This document shows, one piece after another, positions 773-10,512 of a stretch of 32,000 nt of DNA (within the stretch, counting starts at the first letter, position 1; every line of letters begins with the position of its first letter). The notes under the pieces are model-generated. The model saw nothing but the letters and a program-made list of their open reading frames with translations. It ran no database searches and had not been told where the DNA came from. The DNA comes from Candidatus Helarchaeota ASGARD archaeon Hel_GB_B (lineage in GTDB: Archaea; Asgardarchaeota; Lokiarchaeia; Helarchaeales; HEL-GB-B): NCBI GenBank assembly GCA_005191425.1, contig SUPR01000001.1:30001-62000 (forward strand), written 5' to 3'. A program made the translations under genes and the position numbers.

Positions 773-1592
773 ATTTAATTAATATTTTAGTTTCTATTTT
801 AAATTTAAAAAGTGAATATATGTTAATAAAATAAATAATAATTCCCGTAGATTTTAATTTATTATTATTTAATTTTTTTCTCTATAAGATTTTTTCTCTA
901 AAAATTTTAAAAATAAGTAATTTTGAGTGAATCTTCTTAAATTATTCTAATTTCTTTATTCCAATTCATATTATGGCAAAAAATCTTTATTATAAACTTT
1001 TTATTCCATTTTTTTAACCAAAATACGAAAATTACATTTGAACATTCTTGAGTAGGCGCCCCCTATTATTTGTAAATATTTACCCAACATCAGTAATTAA
1101 TTTTAAATCAAAAAGAGCACTACAACGCATTTTTTTCCATTTTGGTTTTATTTCCAATCTTGACTTATTTAAAACTTTTTGAAACTTTAATTTTCTTCTT
1201 ATTTTTAAGTATTTAGAAAAACTTTTTATTTATTTTCTTTTCCTATAAAACAATTACAATTGATTTGATCTATTTTACAAGTTGAGTTTTTGTCGGTAAT
1301 GGATTTTATTCATTGAAAAATTTTTTATTATAAAATAAAAAGATTTAAAAAGAAAGATTAGAGAATAAGTAAATTATGATTAAATAGATCGATTTTCGAT
1401 ATATTATAATCATTAATTTATCCCTAATCACCCATAATATAGATCAATATTATTATCACAATTAATTATTAAAAATATAATTGTATGAAATTAATTAGGA
1501 GTTTAAATATCATCTAAACCGTAGAGATATTAATTAGCTAAATTAATACCCCATCGCTCCTAATTGACTATATTTAAAGATGTGGAATAAAA

Positions 1593-4500
1593 TTGGCACA
1601 AGTTGAAGTTATCACGAAAGATGTTATAATAGATGTACTGACAAATAACTGGCTAACAAAGCCAGAATTATTTAAAAAACTTCCACCGATAAGAGAACAG
1701 AGTACTGTAAAAGTTATTAATGATTATTTAGATACATTAACCCAAAAAGGAATTGTTACAAAAAAAATAATAAAAGGTAGAATTTGTTTTGGAATTTTTA
1801 AAGAAAAAGGGAACGAACCACATCTTAAACAAACAAAATTGGACCAAATAATGCCTAAAGACCGGCAAATTAAAAAGACGGAGTCAAGAGTAAAAATAGG
1901 AAAAACTGTTTACACAAAAACAGTACCAAAGACAAAAGTAACTAAATCCAATAAAAAGACTTCAAATAAAATAAAAAAATCTGTGGATAATACTCAACTT
2001 AAAACTAAAAAAGAAAAAGGTACACCGAAAACAGATTCGATTGAAAAAAAGGACAATATTAAAAAAGAATCTATCAAAAAAAAGGAAACTCCAGCTAAAT
2101 CTGACCTAAAAAATAGACCAGACCAAAAGCCAAATTTACCAATTAAATCCAAATCTAAATCTGAAAGTAAATCAAAAGCCGCAACTGATATTAAATCAGA
2201 TCAAGGAGCAGAATCACATCCAAAATCTAAAGAAACTCAAAAACCTGAATTTAAAGAAAAAACCGAATTATCAAATATAATAGAAAAGGAGAAAATAAAA
2301 GTTAGCCACAAATATAAAAGACGAAAAATTAATAAATCAGGAATTTTACCGACACGAGAATATGTCATGAGCAAAAAAGAAGAAGTTGGTACAGATAGAG
2401 CTTATCAACAACTTTCTCCCGCTGAATTTTTTAAGAAGAATAAAGCAATTGCAGGTTTTGATAATGATCAAAAGGCAGTTTATACAACAATTAGAGAATT
2501 AGTTGAAAATTCTATTGATGCAGCTGAAGCAATCGAAAAGCCCCCAGATATTTTTATAAAAATGGAGTCGCTTCCGAATAATAGATATAAGATTACAATC
2601 CGTGATAATGGCTCAGGGGTACCTGATGAAGAGATCCCAAAATGTTTTGGTATATTATTATATGGATCTAAATATATAAGAAAACAAGGAAGAGGTGCAT
2701 TTGGTTTTGGAGGTAAGATGGCAATATTATATGGACAGATATCAACATTAGAACCTGTCGAAATAAAAAGTTCTACTAATGGAAAAGAAATTTATTATTA
2801 CAAAATGAGGATTGATATAAAAAATAATGAACCGATAATTGAAGAATATAAAGTAATACCAAATTCGGATAATTGGACAGGAACAGAAATATCATTTAAA
2901 TTTAAAGGAGATTATCCTAGAGTACGAAAAAAAGTATTAGAATACTTAAATAAAACTGCAATTATCACACCTCATGCAGAAATCGAATATATTGAACCAA
3001 TAGATGAGCGATGTGAAAAATGTAGATCAGATAGAGTTGAAACTCTTGGAGATGTGATATACTGTAAAAAATGTAGTAATAAATTTATTCATAATATAAA
3101 TATTAATGATAATTTTACTTTAAAAAAGATATTTCAAAATAAAATCGGTGGAATTGATAAAGACCTCTTTAACAAAATAAAATTGGATTTGTCGGATATT
3201 TTAGACGCTGAAATTGATAAACTCAGTAATTTAAGAGAAATATATAATAAAATTGAAGATATTTATGGAAGTCCAATAGGAATAACCAAGGATAATTTAA
3301 TTAATAAAATTTTTAAATTAATTTTAAAAGGAATTAAGAACTTTACAATTATTTCTAAGAAATATAAGAATATTTCAGAAATAGATGTTACTACAAAAAA
3401 AGAAATAATAGAATTAATTGAAAATATAAATAATTTGTTTAAATATGTGGGTGGAAAGTCATTCCCAATTACAAGTTTAACACCCGCAAATATTAAAACA
3501 AAATTAGAACATGAAAAAAAATTTCTAACTAGAGCAAAAAATTTTGATGCTTTTCTTTTAGATATAATTTCAGGACTTGGAAAAAAGACATTAAAAAAGG
3601 TAGAGGATGAATATGGAGAAAATTTAAAAATAGATATTTTCGAAGCAGAATCTAAAATTGATATGAATAAATTATATAAAATATTATATAAAAATCTTAC
3701 ATCTGGATTAATAAACATTAAAGATTTGACATTTGAACAATTCAAACAACTTATAGAAGAAGTAAAAAAAGAAAAAATTAAATATATCTCTAAATTAAAA
3801 GATGGAGTCCTTGAATATATCAGAAAAGATGCGTTTCTATCTCAGAAAGAGCCCTATAAATTTATAAATAATTCAGTGGAAAAATGTCCATATTGTAATT
3901 CATCAGATATAATACAAATTGGGGACTGGAGGCAATGTCAAGTAAGTTCATGCAAGCATAATTATTTAAATATTTATAGACACATTTATAGAAGAGGTAC
4001 TACAGAATTACCGCCAAACCCGACTGCCAGTCTTCCGCATCCGCACGGAATTGATGCAGATACATTATTAGAAATGATTAAAGCAGAATTAAGCGAATTT
4101 TATATCACCTATGAACCTATAGGTAATTATTCTATGCAAAAACTATTAAGAAAAAATATTAAAGGAATTGGAAAAGAAACACTCAATAAGATTGAAGAAT
4201 TAACGCCCGAATCCCTTGAGAAAGATGCCGATAAATTTAGAAATGTTAATCAATTGTATAAGGCAATTGAAAAAGCAGTGGGACATCCAATAGGAAAAGT
4301 TGAGGGTAAAAAAACAGTTTACAACATTAATAATTTAAAATTTGAAGAATTTAAAGAAATTATTAACAATGAACTTTCAAATAATACTAATTTAGACTCT
4401 ATTTTGAAAAAGTTATTTTCAAGATTGCGGGTTAAAATCTTAAATGAAATTAAAAAAGAATTAGATATACAAATCGACCAACAGATTCCTTCAAATATTG

Positions 4501-5639
4501 ATTTAGAAAAGTTATACAAATTATTATTAAAAAAACTCCCTAAAACCAATTCAATTAATGTAAAAGAATTAACTCTTGAAAAATTAAAACAATTAATCGA
4601 AAATGTCAAAAAAGATAAACATGAAGAGTTTAGGAAAGCAAGCCCAAATTTTTATTCATTTATGAATAAGAGATTTCAGAGGACCGGGAAAAAAACAATT
4701 AATAATTTCTGTGAATTTGCGCGGCAAAATTCAACATTAAAGCTTTATCCAGAAACTTTACTAATGGACCTAGATAAAGATGCCATAGTTAAAATCACGG
4801 ATTTACTTCAAAAATTTCCATTTATGAGGCCAGATGCTAGTTGTTTGGCTCCTATAGGAGAACAATTGCTTTTAAAAGGAATTATGAAGGAGATGAACCC
4901 TGAATGGGCTAGTACAGTCCAAAGACCACCTGAAGTTTGTGAAGGACATCCATTTATAATTGAGATGGGACTTGCTTATGGAGGAAAAATAGATTCTTCG
5001 GGTGATTATTTACAAAGATTTGCTAACCGTATTCCATTACTTTATGAATCAAGTATGGGTGTTTGTGCTACTGCAATTAAAAAAATCAATTGGAGACATT
5101 ATAAATTAGATTTAGATAAAATGCCAATACATATTTTTATTCACATAGTATCTACGAAAATACCGTGGGGACGCTTTGGCAAGGAATATATTGCAAATAA
5201 ACCAGAAATTAGGTCAGAAATAGAAAAAGGGATCAAATACTTAGCGGGACAACTCCGTACTTATTTGAGTAAAATTAGAAAAAAGGAATCTATTAAAAAG
5301 AAAGTTTTTAAATTGAAAATTTTTGGCCGCGCATTAATAGAGCCTTTAGCAGAATTAGTTGAAGCAGATCCATCGATCATCGTTAGAATAATATATAATT
5401 ATATTATAAGTAAAAGACCAAAAAAAGAAAAAAGTAAAAATCTGTATAAGAATTTTTCAAACTTTTTTGATGATTTAAGTCTTTTTGATAAATTAGATTT
5501 AGAATATCTGAAATTACTGGTTAAAGAAAAAAGTAAGAATCCATTTAAGAATTTCTTAAATTTTTTTGATAACTTTAATTATATAAACTTATTAATTAAA
5601 CTAAAAATAAATGATCAAGATGTCGACCAAAAGAGTTAG
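1593..5639 (+). CDS. top6B: DNA topoisomerase VI subunit B with large N-terminal extension and two internal insertions
   Basis: LSPAEFF, GHKL motifs RELVENSIDA / DNGSG / GRGAFGFGG, PHPHG, transducer RFANRIPLLY, NWRHY and GKEYIA; directly upstream of top6A. The conserved core begins near the ATG at 2367 (aa 259), an alternative start. Confidence 0.95.
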   Translation: MAQVEVITKDVIIDVLTNNWLTKPELFKKLPPIREQSTVKVINDYLDTLTQKGIVTKKIIKGRICFGIFKEKGNEPHLKQTKLDQIMPKDRQIKKTESRVKIGKTVYTKTVPKTKVTKSNKKTSNKIKKSVDNTQLKTKKEKGTPKTDSIEKKDNIKKESIKKKETPAKSDLKNRPDQKPNLPIKSKSKSESKSKAATDIKSDQGAESHPKSKETQKPEFKEKTELSNIIEKEKIKVSHKYKRRKINKSGILPTREYVMSKKEEVGTDRAYQQLSPAEFFKKNKAIAGFDNDQKAVYTTIRELVENSIDAAEAIEKPPDIFIKMESLPNNRYKITIRDNGSGVPDEEIPKCFGILLYGSKYIRKQGRGAFGFGGKMAILYGQISTLEPVEIKSSTNGKEIYYYKMRIDIKNNEPIIEEYKVIPNSDNWTGTEISFKFKGDYPRVRKKVLEYLNKTAIITPHAEIEYIEPIDERCEKCRSDRVETLGDVIYCKKCSNKFIHNININDNFTLKKIFQNKIGGIDKDLFNKIKLDLSDILDAEIDKLSNLREIYNKIEDIYGSPIGITKDNLINKIFKLILKGIKNFTIISKKYKNISEIDVTTKKEIIELIENINNLFKYVGGKSFPITSLTPANIKTKLEHEKKFLTRAKNFDAFLLDIISGLGKKTLKKVEDEYGENLKIDIFEAESKIDMNKLYKILYKNLTSGLINIKDLTFEQFKQLIEEVKKEKIKYISKLKDGVLEYIRKDAFLSQKEPYKFINNSVEKCPYCNSSDIIQIGDWRQCQVSSCKHNYLNIYRHIYRRGTTELPPNPTASLPHPHGIDADTLLEMIKAELSEFYITYEPIGNYSMQKLLRKNIKGIGKETLNKIEELTPESLEKDADKFRNVNQLYKAIEKAVGHPIGKVEGKKTVYNINNLKFEEFKEIINNELSNNTNLDSILKKLFSRLRVKILNEIKKELDIQIDQQIPSNIDLEKLYKLLLKKLPKTNSINVKELTLEKLKQLIENVKKDKHEEFRKASPNFYSFMNKRFQRTGKKTINNFCEFARQNSTLKLYPETLLMDLDKDAIVKITDLLQKFPFMRPDASCLAPIGEQLLLKGIMKEMNPEWASTVQRPPEVCEGHPFIIEMGLAYGGKIDSSGDYLQRFANRIPLLYESSMGVCATAIKKINWRHYKLDLDKMPIHIFIHIVSTKIPWGRFGKEYIANKPEIRSEIEKGIKYLAGQLRTYLSKIRKKESIKKKVFKLKIFGRALIEPLAELVEADPSIIVRIIYNYIISKRPKKEKSKNLYKNFSNFFDDLSLFDKLDLEYLKLLVKEKSKNPFKNFLNFFDNFNYINLLIKLKINDQDVDQKS
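3111..4820 (+). repeat. Five H2TH-like repeat units within Top6B, starting at about 3111, 3540, 4125, 4389 and 4647
   Basis: NFTLKKIFQNKIGGIDKDLFNKI...IYNKIEDIYGSPIG aligns with NYSMQKLLRKNIKGIGKETLNKI...LYKAIEKAVGHPIG. IDMNKLYKILYKNL-TSGLINIKDLTFEQFKQLIEEVKKEK aligns with IDLEKLYKLLLKKLPKTNSINVKELTLEKLKQLIENVKKDK (840 nt apart). Confidence 0.8.
5424..5609 (+). repeat. Diverged 99-nt (33-aa) tandem duplication in the Top6B C-terminal tail
   Basis: KEKSKNLYKNFSNFFDDL (5424) and KEKSKNPFKNFLNFFDNF (5523); also visible at DNA level (aaagaaaaaagtaa.aat......aagaattt). Confidence 0.8.
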
Positions 5640-6843
5640 AAGTAGTAGTAAAAAGTCTACTGTAAAAAAGAAAACTACTAAAAATTCCAATAAAAAATTG
5701 ACTAGTAAAAAAGAGGTTGAAAAAGAAAAAAAGAAGGAAATTTCAGAAGAATCATTAATTGTTATAGAAAATATTGATTTTTATGCAAATCAAATTTTAA
5801 AAGGATTTATTAATGGTAATCCAACCATAGAAATTCCAATTAGAGGAAAATCAAATGTTGAATATGATGAAGAGAGGGGGATTATTAAAGTATTAGATAA
5901 ATCAAAAGTTTCTGAACGATCTTTTCAAAATATTGCACATACAAAAAAATTTATGCAGTACATTATGGTCTTGAATTTTTGTAAAAAATTATTGAAGACA
6001 AACTCGACTTCTGATTTAAGAGATTTATATTATAGTTTAAAGAGAAAAATACCAGGGACAAGAAATAAAACATTTGATTCACAAGAAGAATCAAATCCAA
6101 TTATTGAAGATATAGAAGTAGCTATGGACATATGGAGAGAACGATTACATATTTCTGCAGATCCAAAGGGGTACATCGTTGGTGATATTATTTTTACTCA
6201 AAAATTAAAAAATAAAGACCAAAGAATTGATTGTAATGAGATGGGTACCGGTTGGGGAATTCCGAGTAATGTAGAAAGGGACATTTTAGAAATAGAAAAT
6301 GTAAATGCAAAATATTTATTGGCTATTGAATCTGCAGGAATGTACAGCAGACTGGTTGAGGAAAATTTTCATGAAAATAATAAGTGTATATTAATTGCAT
6401 TAAAAGGCCAAGCAAGTAGAGGGACTAGAAGATTAATAAATCGGATTGCTTATGAAAAGAATATACCAGTTTATGTATTCGTAGATGGAGATCCATGGGG
6501 TTTTTATATTTATTCAGTGCTTAAATTCGGTAGTATGTCGTTATCTTTTATAGGGAGTAAACTGGCTACACCTAAAGCAAAATTTATTGGAATGACGATG
6601 GAGGATATAAGCGACTATAAGTTAGAAGATTCAACTCATCCGTTAAGTAAAGTAGACATTAAAAGAATAGATGACCTATTGGATTTACCATGGTTCCAAA
6701 ATGATGAATGGCAAACTGAACTAAAATTGATGAAAAAAATTCAAAAACGTATCGAACAACAGGCGCTTGCATCAAGGTCGTTAGATTTTGTAGCCACGAC
6801 TTATTTACCTGAAAAAATTAAAAATAAGAAATTTTTACCTTAA
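5611..6843 (+). CDS. top6A: DNA topoisomerase VI subunit A (Spo11 family)
   Basis: Catalytic region LRDLYY, TOPRIM motifs AIESAG and VFVDGDPWG, C-terminal IEQQAL. Overlaps the top6B stop; alternative start ATG 5620. Lys/Ser-rich N-terminal tail of about 45 aa. Confidence 0.96.
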   Translation: MIKMSTKRVRSSSKKSTVKKKTTKNSNKKLTSKKEVEKEKKKEISEESLIVIENIDFYANQILKGFINGNPTIEIPIRGKSNVEYDEERGIIKVLDKSKVSERSFQNIAHTKKFMQYIMVLNFCKKLLKTNSTSDLRDLYYSLKRKIPGTRNKTFDSQEESNPIIEDIEVAMDIWRERLHISADPKGYIVGDIIFTQKLKNKDQRIDCNEMGTGWGIPSNVERDILEIENVNAKYLLAIESAGMYSRLVEENFHENNKCILIALKGQASRGTRRLINRIAYEKNIPVYVFVDGDPWGFYIYSVLKFGSMSLSFIGSKLATPKAKFIGMTMEDISDYKLEDSTHPLSKVDIKRIDDLLDLPWFQNDEWQTELKLMKKIQKRIEQQALASRSLDFVATTYLPEKIKNKKFLP

Positions 6844-7685
6844 TTAGAAAATTTTTGTTCATATTTTAAATTACGTTGTTTTCGCTCTTCTGCGAGTTGT
6901 TTTAGAAATTCTAGTTGACGGAATCCCCAACGAGCTCTTCCAATAGAGACACCTGGAGCCCAAGTCCTTAGTATATCTAATTCTTCTTGTGTTGGAAGTG
7001 GTGTTTGTTTCAAATCATCAGCAACTTTTAAGTCCCAAGGGACAGAACGAAGTAACTTTTTTAGGTTCACTTTAGGGTGTATAGACTCTAGATAAATTTC
7101 TTTAGTATCTTTTTCGAATTTAAAAACACCTTTTTGAGTAATAACGGCATGCGGCCCACCAGGAAGTCCTGCTTCTTCGCGAGAATTTCCTCCTTTTAGC
7201 CAGCCGGGCGTGGTAATATATGGTAATTCATTAACAAATCTACCATGTCGCATCATAATAACAATTCTTTTCGCATAACCACCAATTTCATTAGCACCAC
7301 CAGAACCAGCTATACGTTTATCGGGGAAACGTTGAAAAGAAGTATTAATATTTCCATATTTATCTATTTGAGAGGCGCCTAGAAATCCCACATCAAAATA
7401 TCCGCCAAATAAATAATAGCCGAAAATTTCGATTAGTTCACAAGATGCAGCACAACCTTTCATTGCGGTCATATCAGCTATGTGTATAGGAGGTCGATAC
7501 AAGTTAAATTCAATTATTCCTCCTTCCATAATTAAAGTGAGGTTTTTTCCAGATTTTTTAGCTAATAATGCAGCAAGAATAGGATAGCCTTGCCCTACGA
7601 ATACGACATCTCCATCATTTAATTCGCGAGAGGCAGCAGAACACATAATTTCTTCATATGTAAGTTTAATCGTTTTAATTTTCAT
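6840..7685 (-). CDS. gctB: Family I CoA-transferase beta subunit (glutaconate CoA-transferase B-like)
   Basis: VFVGQG, LIMEGG (catalytic Glu position), GFLGASQIDKYGNIN, GSGGANEI. Start placed at ATG 7685 (MKIKTIK), overlapping the alpha-subunit stop, rather than 7715. Substrate not determinable. Confidence 0.82.
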   Translation of the reverse strand: MKIKTIKLTYEEIMCSAASRELNDGDVVFVGQGYPILAALLAKKSGKNLTLIMEGGIIEFNLYRPPIHIADMTAMKGCAASCELIEIFGYYLFGGYFDVGFLGASQIDKYGNINTSFQRFPDKRIAGSGGANEIGGYAKRIVIMMRHGRFVNELPYITTPGWLKGGNSREEAGLPGGPHAVITQKGVFKFEKDTKEIYLESIHPKVNLKKLLRSVPWDLKVADDLKQTPLPTQEELDILRTWAPGVSIGRARWGFRQLEFLKQLAEERKQRNLKYEQKFSN

Positions 7686-8697
7686 CAACCTCCACTTCAA
7701 ACATTTCAGGTGCATCTAAAATATCATCCATTTTCAGTTCAAGGAGCTCCATATCCTTTAGAAATGAAGAACCTAAATTGACAGATGCAGAAGGATAGAC
7801 CCTAGCTCGGAGTTTATGCAAAGGTTGCATACCATAGACGTCAGTATAATGTTCGATATAATGATATCGATCTTCAATATTATAAATCCATTCATCTACC
7901 CAAGAGGAGAAGAGAGATTTTGAAACAGATGCAGCTGAATATAGTCCTACCATCATCCTATCCATATCATAATAACCAAGGACTTCTGATGGGTGAGCAC
8001 CCCAAGGTTCAATACATATTGCATCAACTCTAAAACCAGGAATGATAGTATTATTAGGCGATAATCTTACAACTTCACGGGGTACCATTTCCTCAGCCGA
8101 AACAATAATTCTTTTACTTGCAAGAGCTCCATGTTTAACAGTACCAAGAGCACCCCAAAGTTGAGCATTTCCATCTTGATCAACTCTTTGGCAATGGACA
8201 ATTGCAACATCAGGTTTTATTGCAGGGACAAGAAGTACTTTTTCTTTAGGATTAAACGGATTGTCAATTAATTTAAACATTCCTTCTTTATGACGATTCC
8301 AGATATCAGTATATAAAATAGATGGTTTTGCTGGAAAAAATGGTAAATTTAATGCACCAGCCATTAGCATTGCAGCTACAGTATAATTGGTATAATCTTG
8401 AACTTCAATATTATATTCAACTACTCCTCTATCAAAGGCTCTCTGCCCTTTAACTATTCTATATGACCATGATGAAATGACTTTTTTAAGGCAACCACAG
8501 CCTGCCAGCAAATCAAGCTCGTGCATACAAGTGGCTTGTACTGCAGTTAAATTTTTCTTTTTTTGTCTAATTATTTCATGTATTAATGCATATGGTCCTG
8601 CAGTACCACAGCTTGTAATTGATAAAGTATCTCCATCATGGACAAATTTTTTAATTGCTTCTTTTGTGGACATTAATTTGGGAGATTCATTTATCAT
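7675..8697 (-). CDS. gctA: Family I CoA-transferase alpha subunit (glutaconate CoA-transferase A-like)
   Basis: EAIKKFVHDGD, LDLLAGCG, PAIKPDVAIVHCQRVDQDGN, IVSAEE, EPWGAHPS, YDMD; coupled to the beta subunit. Confidence 0.85.
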   Translation of the reverse strand: MINESPKLMSTKEAIKKFVHDGDTLSITSCGTAGPYALIHEIIRQKKKNLTAVQATCMHELDLLAGCGCLKKVISSWSYRIVKGQRAFDRGVVEYNIEVQDYTNYTVAAMLMAGALNLPFFPAKPSILYTDIWNRHKEGMFKLIDNPFNPKEKVLLVPAIKPDVAIVHCQRVDQDGNAQLWGALGTVKHGALASKRIIVSAEEMVPREVVRLSPNNTIIPGFRVDAICIEPWGAHPSEVLGYYDMDRMMVGLYSAASVSKSLFSSWVDEWIYNIEDRYHYIEHYTDVYGMQPLHKLRARVYPSASVNLGSSFLKDMELLELKMDDILDAPEMFEVEVDEN

Positions 8698-9093: not shown

Positions 9094-10512
9094 TTGACGA
9101 TTACTATAATGAAATTTGGCGGAAGTTGTCTGAAAGACGCTGGTTCATTTAAAAAAACATTATCTGCAATTAAAAAATTTAAGAACGATAAATTAGTACT
9201 AGTTTGTTCAGCCCTTAATGGAGTTACTAATTATTTATTGGAAACAAGTTTAGAGATTGAAAACAGAACATATAAACCTGAAGAACGATTAGCTTTTTTA
9301 AGAAACAGACATATAGAACTTGCCAAAAATGTAATATCTAATAAAAAATTTTTGGAACAATGTATAAAATTTATTGAAAATTCACTTGAAAGGTTACAAA
9401 ATACATTATACGGAGTATACGAAATAGGTTCTACGACTCGCTCCACAGATTTTATACTCTCGTTCGGTGAGCGTTTATCGACATATATATTATATGAATT
9501 TTTGCAATCAAATAATTTTAAAGCAGAATACAAGAGCGCTGACAAGTTCATTTATACAAATATTGAGTATAAGAACCAATTGCCTTTATTTGAAAAAAGT
9601 AAAGAAGCAATTTTAGAAGAATTCAAAGAATCAATTAAAGATAGAATTTGTGTAGTAACAGGCTACATTTCAAGAAATATAAGAGGAAATGTAACAACTT
9701 TAGGAAGAGGAGGTAGCGACTTAACCGCGACGATATTAGGTTATAGCTTAAAAGATTTAGACACAGACATTAAAATAATTTTATGGAAAGATGTCCCAGG
9801 GCTTTTAACAGCAAATCCAAAAGTAGAAAACAAAGCGAGGCTCATTAAAACAATTTCTTTTGAAGAAGCGCGCGAAATGGCTTATTTTGGGTCAAAAGTT
9901 TTACACCCATTATGTATAATTCCGGCACAAAAAGCTGGAATTCCCATCGAATTACGAAACATTAATGACCAAAATTCTGAGATGTTTACTACAATAGGAA
10001 ATTTTAGGAGAGGCCCAGAAACGCATAAATTGCATCCCGTAAAAGCAATTACTTCATCTAATGCAGCAATGATTACTGTTAGTGGTGAAGCAATGGTATC
10101 ATTGCCAGGGACTGCAGCTCGAATATTTAATGTTATGGGAGATAATAATATTAATGTAATAATGATTTCACAAAGCTCGTCTGAAAATAATATTACATTT
10201 TTAGTAGAAGACAAGGAAAATGAAATATCTAAAGCAAAAACAGCTCTTGAAAATTCTGAATTTTTCGGAAAAAAATTTTTTGATATTAAAATTGATGATA
10301 ATGTTAGTTTAATAGCAGTAGTTGGACCAATGGCATATATCCCGGGTATTGCAGGAAAATTGTTTAGTTTAATGGGTGAAAATAAAATTAATATACGTGC
10401 TATAGCTCAAGGTAGCTCTGAATTAAATATTTCGTTCGTTATCGATAGAGACCAATGTCAGAAAGCAATTAAAATAATTCATGAAGGATTTGAATTATAT
10501 AAAGAAAATTAA
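9094..10512 (+). CDS. lysC: Aspartate kinase with two C-terminal ACT domains
   Basis: MKFGGS, LSFGERLS, TLGRGGSDLTA, WKDVPG, EMAYFGSKVLHP, SQSSSENNI, AQGSSELNIS. TTG start. Confidence 0.93.
   Translation: MTITIMKFGGSCLKDAGSFKKTLSAIKKFKNDKLVLVCSALNGVTNYLLETSLEIENRTYKPEERLAFLRNRHIELAKNVISNKKFLEQCIKFIENSLERLQNTLYGVYEIGSTTRSTDFILSFGERLSTYILYEFLQSNNFKAEYKSADKFIYTNIEYKNQLPLFEKSKEAILEEFKESIKDRICVVTGYISRNIRGNVTTLGRGGSDLTATILGYSLKDLDTDIKIILWKDVPGLLTANPKVENKARLIKTISFEEAREMAYFGSKVLHPLCIIPAQKAGIPIELRNINDQNSEMFTTIGNFRRGPETHKLHPVKAITSSNAAMITVSGEAMVSLPGTAARIFNVMGDNNINVIMISQSSSENNITFLVEDKENEISKAKTALENSEFFGKKFFDIKIDDNVSLIAVVGPMAYIPGIAGKLFSLMGENKINIRAIAQGSSELNISFVIDRDQCQKAIKIIHEGFELYKEN

Follow-up and report, generated by a model that had tools for sequence, protein, structure and literature searches.

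The genome of Candidatus Helarchaeota archaeon Hel_GB_B was analysed over a window of 32,000 nucleotides (nt) (contig SUPR01000001.1, positions 30,001 to 62,000 of the forward strand; coordinates below are those of the window). It carries a top6B gene whose product, the B subunit of DNA topoisomerase VI (topo VI), is about 2.5 times the normal size. The DNA is of low GC content, about 21–37% per kb. The protein has two long internal insertions, in which a module related to its own H2TH domain occurs four times in full and once in part. We propose that Top6B would have been enlarged by amplification of this domain. A derivative of ~80 amino acids (aa), composed of a helix, a G-x-G-K-K-T hairpin, a helix, one extra helix and a final helix, would have been inserted as tandem copies at two surface sites, immediately ahead of the canonical H2TH (two copies) and at the tip of the last beta-hairpin of the GHKL ATPase domain (two and a half). 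The final helix of each module would be the first helix of the next H2TH-like unit, giving a continuous array. All features are listed in Table 1, in which amino acid N of Top6B corresponds to nt 1593+3(N-1).

Identification of the gene product as Top6B, already put forward in a preliminary description of this DNA, is sustained by two protein family models: the NCBIfam equivalog PRK04184 (NF003218) is matched with 481.6 bits (cut-off 274) and TIGR01052 with 413.5 bits (cut-off 380.7). The Pfam transducer domain PF09239 is found over the full length of the family (3.7e-53, aa 1080–1237) and HATPase_c at aa 292–372 (3.8e-10). Alignment to the S. shibatae protein places and finds intact the N-box ELVENS (N), the DNGSG (G1) and GRGAFGFGG (G2) motifs of the ATPase and the switch-Lys GKE of the transducer, while WKxY is represented by WRHY, a conservative K-to-R change. 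The preliminary statement that all ATPase and transducer motifs are preserved is therefore correct. The initiation codon is supported by the orthologues, in which the sequence MAQ(F/I)EVI begins at the same position. No second match to the Top6B transducer was found in the genome (3.54 Mb in 182 contigs, 93.7% complete), so that the enlarged protein would be the sole B subunit of the cell. The partner Top6A of the A2B2 enzyme is encoded directly 3′ of top6B, an arrangement found likewise at the orthologous P0005 locus (see below). The enlarged Top6B is best explained, from these sequence data, as the working B subunit of the only topo VI of the organism. GyrA is also encoded in the genome.

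Domain boundaries were obtained by phmmer against PDB sequences, with S. shibatae Top6B (1mx0/2zbk) as reference. Three blocks align: aa 270–469 with residues 8–210, aa 799–~845 with residues 217–~255 and aa 1022–1238 with residues 258–470. Insertion 1 lies at the turn of the last GHKL beta-hairpin and is kept in the related proteins P0004, P0005 and P0006 at 45–63% identity. The lengths of ~325 and ~175 aa first estimated for insertions 1 and 2 become 329 and ~170 aa by the S. shibatae alignment, and the coordinates given for both were accurate. The span to which the preliminary description applied was also rightly placed, though it takes in just a part of the enlargement: the N-terminal extension (aa 1–258) and the C-terminal tail are outside it.

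Insertions 1 and 2 are homologous to each other (BLASTP E-values of 4e-9, which is the match of modules A1 and A2, and 7e-7). The ~80-aa module was defined by an iterated hidden Markov model (HMM) that identified 23 modules in four proteins. In the Top6B studied here, A1 and B1 are the full modules of insertion 1, A2 and B2 those of insertion 2, and a partial module devoid of the first helix separates A1 from B1. The last helix of this partial module belongs to the H2TH-like unit that was matched structurally around B1 (see below). The preliminary description had counted two H2TH-like units in insertion 1, which correspond to the two full modules, and had missed the third, partial one (aa ~587–647); the homologous pair that it saw in insertion 2, before the canonical H2TH, is recovered as A2 and B2 by the HMM. 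The hairpin GxGK(K/E)T is present in B1, A2 and the canonical H2TH. The net charge is +12 for insertion 1 and +9 for insertion 2.

The modules are H2TH-like according to profile comparison and, for two of them, according to predicted fold. A profile built from the 23 modules can be aligned, in register, to one made of 22 canonical Asgard H2TH domains without this protein (hhalign P 2.3e-5); the match spans the first 37 columns, which comprise a helix, the G-x-G hairpin and a helix. The module HMM also matches in register a canonical H2TH, that of the unrelated Asgard Top6B of G150 (2314 aa; i-Evalue (iE) 2.6e-4). In P0004 two modules are nested inside the canonical H2TH and the second one ends in the final helix of the canonical domain itself, which ties the last helix of the module to helix 4 of the H2TH. 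The iterated module HMM search alone reached neither the canonical H2TH nor the modules of families f2 and f3, and Pfam searches with each of the 23 modules gave nothing significant (best HHH_5, E 0.089, in 2 members). The phmmer alignment to M. mazei Top6B (2q2e) begins past the hairpin.

AF2 models of the insertions were compared by VIA search with 48,161 PDB representative chains. In the model of insertion 2 (pLDDT 84), module B2 (model residues 64–147) has as its first-ranking match the H2TH of S. shibatae (2zbk_B residues 230–313; Z 6.4, root mean square deviation (rmsd) of 2.6 Å over 75 aa). The B1 part of the insertion 1 model (model residues 162–244, aa 623–705) likewise has 2zbk_B, residues 230–307, at rank 1 of the 48,161 chains (Z 8.9, rmsd of 2.5 Å over 78 aa), and this is its sole match at Z ≥ 8. 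Further matches of the insertion 2 model are residues 233–312 of M. mazei Top6B (Z 5.1), about ten H2TH domains of Fpg/Nei/NEIL, and NEMF/Rqc2; the A2 part (model residues 1–56) matches chains of the ribosomal protein uS13 (Z 4.0–4.6). The structural unit matched combines the terminal helix of one module with helices one to three of its successor. It crosses the module borders, and the predicted array is thus interlocked rather than organised as beads on a string. The H2TH fold of the repeats that was first read from the sequence is supported by these models and by the profile alignment.

Several points weigh against the overall interpretation, in which H2TH-derived modules would extend DNA binding. 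The AF2 model of insertion 1, derived from a 5-row alignment, has a mean pLDDT of 53 and is confident across B1 and not in the ribbons, A1 or the spacer; at both putative zinc ribbons the pLDDT is below 50. The VIA Z values of 6.4 and 8.9 are moderate and the tool warns that values in this range can come from common helical arrangements. The H2TH argument consequently rests on rank and on recurrence of the superfamily, as two different modules both retrieved this one domain at the top of the list. A Foldseek search of the PDB with the insertion 2 model returned no match at E ≤ 0.001, and the module profile gave matches at chance level only (E ≥ 0.24) among PDB sequences. The hairpins of A1 and B2 are degenerate (GIDKD and RLRVK, respectively), and these two copies may be structural spacers. 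Individual modules carry only a modest positive charge (+1 to +6 each).

Two C4 clusters bracket insertion 1 at the positions initially reported (Table 1). They account for eight of the 14 Cys residues in the 1348 aa of the protein, and all eight are kept in every orthologue that covers them. The two motifs are weakly related to each other (hhalign P 8e-4). A common (L/I)GD had been noted in both; its Gly is conserved among the orthologues and the remaining positions are not. The sole Pfam zinc-finger match is that of zf-RRPl_C4 to motif 1 (E 0.012; 16.2 bits, below the 28.9 cut-off). The clusters would bind zinc. One is carried by the outgoing chain of the hairpin and the other by the returning chain, so that they must lie close together, an arrangement by which the putative ribbons probably staple the base of insertion 1.

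The rarity of this architecture was assessed by phmmer with aa 470–1021 against 1.84 billion representatives. Only P0004, P0005 and the fragment P0006 match with the insertion architecture, and these three relatives answer the concern that it might already be widespread. P0007 (1874 aa, Ser/Thr-rich, E 3e-5) was judged to be a low-complexity false match. P0005 (1326 aa, assigned to Helarchaeota in NCBI) shows 63–66% identity from end to end and contains the same components in unchanged order, which speaks for purifying conservation. Its locus, on a 119-kb contig, is syntenic with the one described here: top6B, top6A, two CoA-transferase genes and an amino-acid kinase/ACT gene. In P0004 (2053 aa, partial), 13–14 modules were counted. 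No other genome in a sample of 151 from the phylum (150 and this one) matched the insertion sequence. The canonical Top6Bs of other Asgard classes are 497–681 aa long and 40–50% identical to the core of this protein; in the other families of its own class Top6B is long (1000–1285 aa) with a divergent core (25–30% identity), and among those examined the C4 clusters and the GHKL-hairpin insertion were absent. Judged from these sequences, enlargement of Top6B is general in the class and the GHKL-hairpin insertion with its ribbons is confined to one small family.

The topo VI evolution literature (PMC9665070, PMC11302465, PMC9348778, PMC12680538) describes extra helices and gyrase-linked C-terminal domains; term searches of these papers found neither multiplied H2TH domains nor zinc ribbons. 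The enlarged Top6B is apparently rare and undescribed.

An artefact or a selfish insertion, that is a chimeric assembly or an intein or mobile element within top6B, had to be considered for a repeat-rich, low-GC sequence assembled from a metagenome, all the more as the top6B of the same-genus genome G001 is split across two contig ends. Logan contigs from four runs were aligned to nt 1500–5700. A single 4228-nt contig of run X1, which may be the source sample, spans 2894–5700 with four substitutions and zero gaps, and contigs of run X2, from a different study, cover 2698–3350 and 3324–4924. All four insertion junctions are thereby bridged twice, by contigs of two studies, which argues against the misassembly that had been raised as a possible objection; the syntenic full-length orthologue P0005 speaks in the same direction. 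The Pfam search of the open reading frame (ORF) found no Hint/intein or homing-endonuclease family, and the inserted sequence is homologous to the H2TH of the host protein itself. Artefact or intein is essentially excluded. Apparent joints that look like deletions in the contig alignment all had a side of 21–23 letters and came from unrelated contigs; they were discarded as chance matches in AT-rich sequence.

What the added modules would do can be approached from the known role of H2TH. In complexes of M. mazei topo VI with supercoiled minicircle DNA, H2TH contacts the bent arms of the G-segment at the outer edge of Top6B, and contacts with the phosphate backbone of these arms are required for supercoil relaxation (PMC13040014, PMC5922973). 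They resemble the DNA contacts of Fpg/Nei enzymes (PMC13040014). Since H2TH grips the G-segment arms in the solved complexes, the extra modules, the winged-helix-like (wHTH-like) domain and the polybasic tether would lengthen the DNA path per B subunit. With a longer held path, the enzyme would bind bent or crossed DNA with higher affinity or stay on it longer. Given this literature and the conservation of the GxGKKT hairpin, we infer that the modules would bind the nucleic-acid backbone. Extra DNA-arm binding or tethering by the added modules seems to us rather probable, and the enlarged DNA-binding surface proposed in the preliminary description is a reasonable suggestion. The more specific effects put forward there (altered crossing or supercoil selectivity, chromatin targeting) would be speculative. 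The degenerate state of some hairpins and the modest charge of the modules would also suit a protein-protein or regulatory platform, in which arrays and ribbons might anchor chromatin proteins or components of the replisome, keep the enzyme sequestered or act as a gate on its ATPase. Lineage-specific Top6B extensions in archaea that encode gyrase were proposed to sequester or coordinate topo VI (PMC9348778), and GyrA is encoded here; the C-terminal tail with its repeated short motif is also reminiscent of a docking peptide. We nevertheless regard a platform as unlikely, for the characterised groups that figure among the S13-like H2TH matches (Top6B, Fpg/Nei/NEIL and uS13) all use the motif on nucleic acid, and the GxGKKT hairpin is nearly invariant in the B-type modules of four proteins.

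Less likely still is a largely neutral expansion of repeats at permissive surface loops, tolerated and not selected, in a genome that is rich in AT and readily undergoes tandem duplication. The sharp variation in copy number (about 5 here and in P0005 versus 13–14 in P0004) is in line with such an expansion, as are the different insertions that sister families carry in the H2TH alpha3–alpha4 loop and nearby sites, and the break of the same-genus genome assembly inside the array. The module order and boundaries and all eight Cys are, however, conserved between genomes at 63% identity, the modules are confidently folded in the insertion 2 model, and the protein is the only Top6B in the genome and must function. 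Beyond DNA-arm binding proper, the ribbon-stapled H2TH arrays on the ATPase head might constitute a DNA-wrapping arm, a type IIB counterpart of the C-terminal domain of gyrase and topo IV that gives a new topological preference, with the copy number (about 5 here, 13–14 in P0004) tuning the length of DNA held. This idea is speculative and we consider it improbable. If it were true, the enzyme could, for instance, sense chirality, wrap a contiguous T-segment or act on DNA bound by histones.

Topo VI serves as the model both of type IIB topoisomerases and of the machinery of Spo11 meiotic breaks. A natural series of enzymes carrying 1, about 5 or about 14 H2TH units could be used to examine how substrate preference, and the coupling of ATP use to strand passage, depend on the length of DNA that the B subunit holds. 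The series also tells that the GHKL head tolerates a nested insertion of 329 aa at one hairpin. The sequences suggest that Asgard lineages, at least two of them gyrase-bearing, repeatedly rebuilt the DNA-binding periphery of topo VI, an aspect that term searches did not find in the surveys cited above.

Table 1. Features of the top6B–top6A region and of the encoded Top6B protein (window coordinates; aa positions refer to Top6B).
Feature	Position (nt)	Strand	Extent	Remarks
top6B ORF	1593..5639	+	1348 aa	TTG start; only Top6B of the genome
wHTH-like domain, N-terminal	1593..1817	+	aa 1-75	Conserved in P0004, P0005
Lys-rich low-complexity linker	1818..2366	+	aa 76-258	Net charge +32; orthologues have a linker of differing sequence
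GHKL ATPase domain up to last hairpin	2367..2999	+	aa 259-469	S. shibatae residues about 6-210; phmmer domain i-Evalue about 1e-51
Insertion 1	3000..3986	+	aa 470-798 (329 aa)	Gap between S. shibatae residues ~210 and ~217
Putative zinc-ribbon motif 1, CxxC-x13-CxxC	3012..3074	+	C474/C477/C491/C494	Cys invariant in 4/4 sequences
Module A1	3111..3350	+	aa 507-586	Iterated module HMM iE 4e-23
Partial module without first helix	3351..3533	+	aa ~587-647	HMM iE 5e-14, profile positions 18-81
Module B1	3534..3782	+	aa 648-730	GLGKKT hairpin; HMM iE 2e-26; AF2 pLDDT 76-89
Putative zinc-ribbon motif 2, CxxC-x13-Cx4C	3885..3953	+	C765/C768/C782/C787	Cys conserved in P0001, P0005, P0004
GHKL hairpin return strand, PHPHG motif and first H2TH helix	3987..4127	+	aa 799-845	S. 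shibatae residues ~217-255
Insertion 2	4128..4634/4655	+	aa 846-1014/1021 (~170 aa)	Directly precedes canonical H2TH
Module A2	4128..4382	+	aa 846-930 (HMM aa 845-933)	GIGKET hairpin; HMM iE 2e-26; AF2 pLDDT ~90
Module B2	4383..4634	+	aa 931-1014 (HMM aa 931-1011)	Degenerate hairpin; HMM iE 2e-20
Canonical H2TH	4635..4847	+	aa 1015-1085	S. shibatae residues 255-306; canonical Asgard H2TH HMM iE 1.3e-6
Transducer domain	4848..5306	+	aa 1086-1238	Pfam PF09239
C-terminal tail	5307..5639	+	aa 1239-1348 (110 aa)	Two KNFxNFF(D) copies, read from sequence
top6A	5611..6843	+	410 aa	29-nt overlap with top6B; Pfam TOP6A-Spo11_Toprim 3.9e-59, TP6A_N 1.2e-16

The two KNFxNFF(D) copies of the tail are found at window positions 5445–5468 and 5544–5567. 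The motif is also present in the tail of P0005 and bears by eye a loose resemblance to a docking peptide of the non-canonical PIP-box type. Downstream from top6A the window has, on the minus strand (6840–8697), two ORFs of the size of CoA-transferases (291 and 340 aa) followed on the plus strand by a 472-aa ORF (9094–10512). The order of these ORFs equals that of the P0005 locus, whose products are CoA_trans, CoA_trans and AA_kinase/ACT, and synteny thus reaches past the topo VI genes.

The Top6B core of this family (f1) is of the canonical archaeal type and shares ~50% identity with S. shibatae and with Top6Bs of other Asgard classes; the remaining genomes of its own class for which a match was obtained (L013–L026) all have only the divergent Top6B type (25–30% identity). 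Two Asgard Top6A/B clades are reported in PMC12680538. The presence of a canonical core here versus the divergent type of the class fits these two clades, and replacement by lateral transfer may have occurred.

Sister families show other kinds of enlargement. In the Top6Bs of families f2 and f3, of the same order, several H2TH-like units apparently follow one another in tandem between GHKL and transducer (seen by eye and as weak HMM matches), and that of f3 has in addition an N-terminal wHTH-like domain and a Lys-rich linker. In families f4 and f5 the H2TH is interrupted by a coiled-coil-like insertion of ~150 aa, and a wHTH-like domain is found at the C-terminus. Their insertion (L017–L026, e.g., G016 aa 355–380 and 533–567) is Lys/Glu-rich and splits H2TH helices 3 and 4. 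The loop between these helices thus holds the f4/f5 insertion, the extra helix of the f1 module and the nested modules of P0004, and is an insertion hot spot. The wHTH-like domain of f4/f5 is at the extreme C-terminus, behind a Lys/Pro-rich linker, and is possibly homologous to the f1 N-terminal domain; the wHTH profile gave weak full-length matches at the extreme C-terminus of family f4 Top6Bs (iE 6e-4 to 0.05), which are suggestive only. This distribution suggests that the wHTH-like domain was shuffled between protein ends. In family f25, the 2314-aa Top6B of G150 (L060:6938-13882) has a canonical core in its first ~520 aa and a C-terminal extension of ~1800 aa, to which many weak stretches contribute summed matches to Pfam families of the HhH type (RAD51D_N 111 bits, HHH_5 65 bits). 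Its gene directly follows gyrB and gyrA. Comparable ORFs (2258–4305 aa) that match Top6B are present in families f8, f17, f19, f25, f27 and f28.

Among characterised systems, the closest to the enlarged protein are the canonical archaeal Top6Bs of S. shibatae (1mx0/2zbk) and M. mazei (2q2e, and DNA complexes such as 9o8p). They share with it three domains (GHKL, H2TH, transducer) arranged in the same order, ~50% identity within GHKL, intact motifs and an adjacent top6A gene. The canonical proteins have 470–620 aa and one H2TH, whereas the one described here has 1348 aa and 4.5 extra H2TH-derived modules, two C4 clusters, a wHTH-like domain joined through a polybasic linker at the N-terminus, and a C-terminal tail. 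A likeness in parts is found with the DNA glycosylases Fpg/MutM/Nei/NEIL, whose H2TH domains are among the structural matches (Z 4.2–7.0): an S13-like H2TH unit occurs together with a zinc motif of the CxxC…CxxC beta-hairpin type, a pair that in those enzymes jointly binds the DNA backbone. Unlike them, Top6B lacks a glycosylase domain, its ribbon and H2TH are ordered and spaced differently, and its ribbon fold is putative. Methanopyrus kandleri topoisomerase V (topo V) has a C-terminal (HhH)2 array, a long tandem series of helical-hairpin modules that bind the DNA backbone and are thought to raise DNA affinity and processivity. Topo V is of type IC, and its array, in contrast to that of Top6B, is C-terminal and made of classical HhH motifs, with neither internal H2TH copies nor zinc ribbons. 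We take the likenesses to Fpg/Nei and to topo V as analogies of parts and not as family membership.

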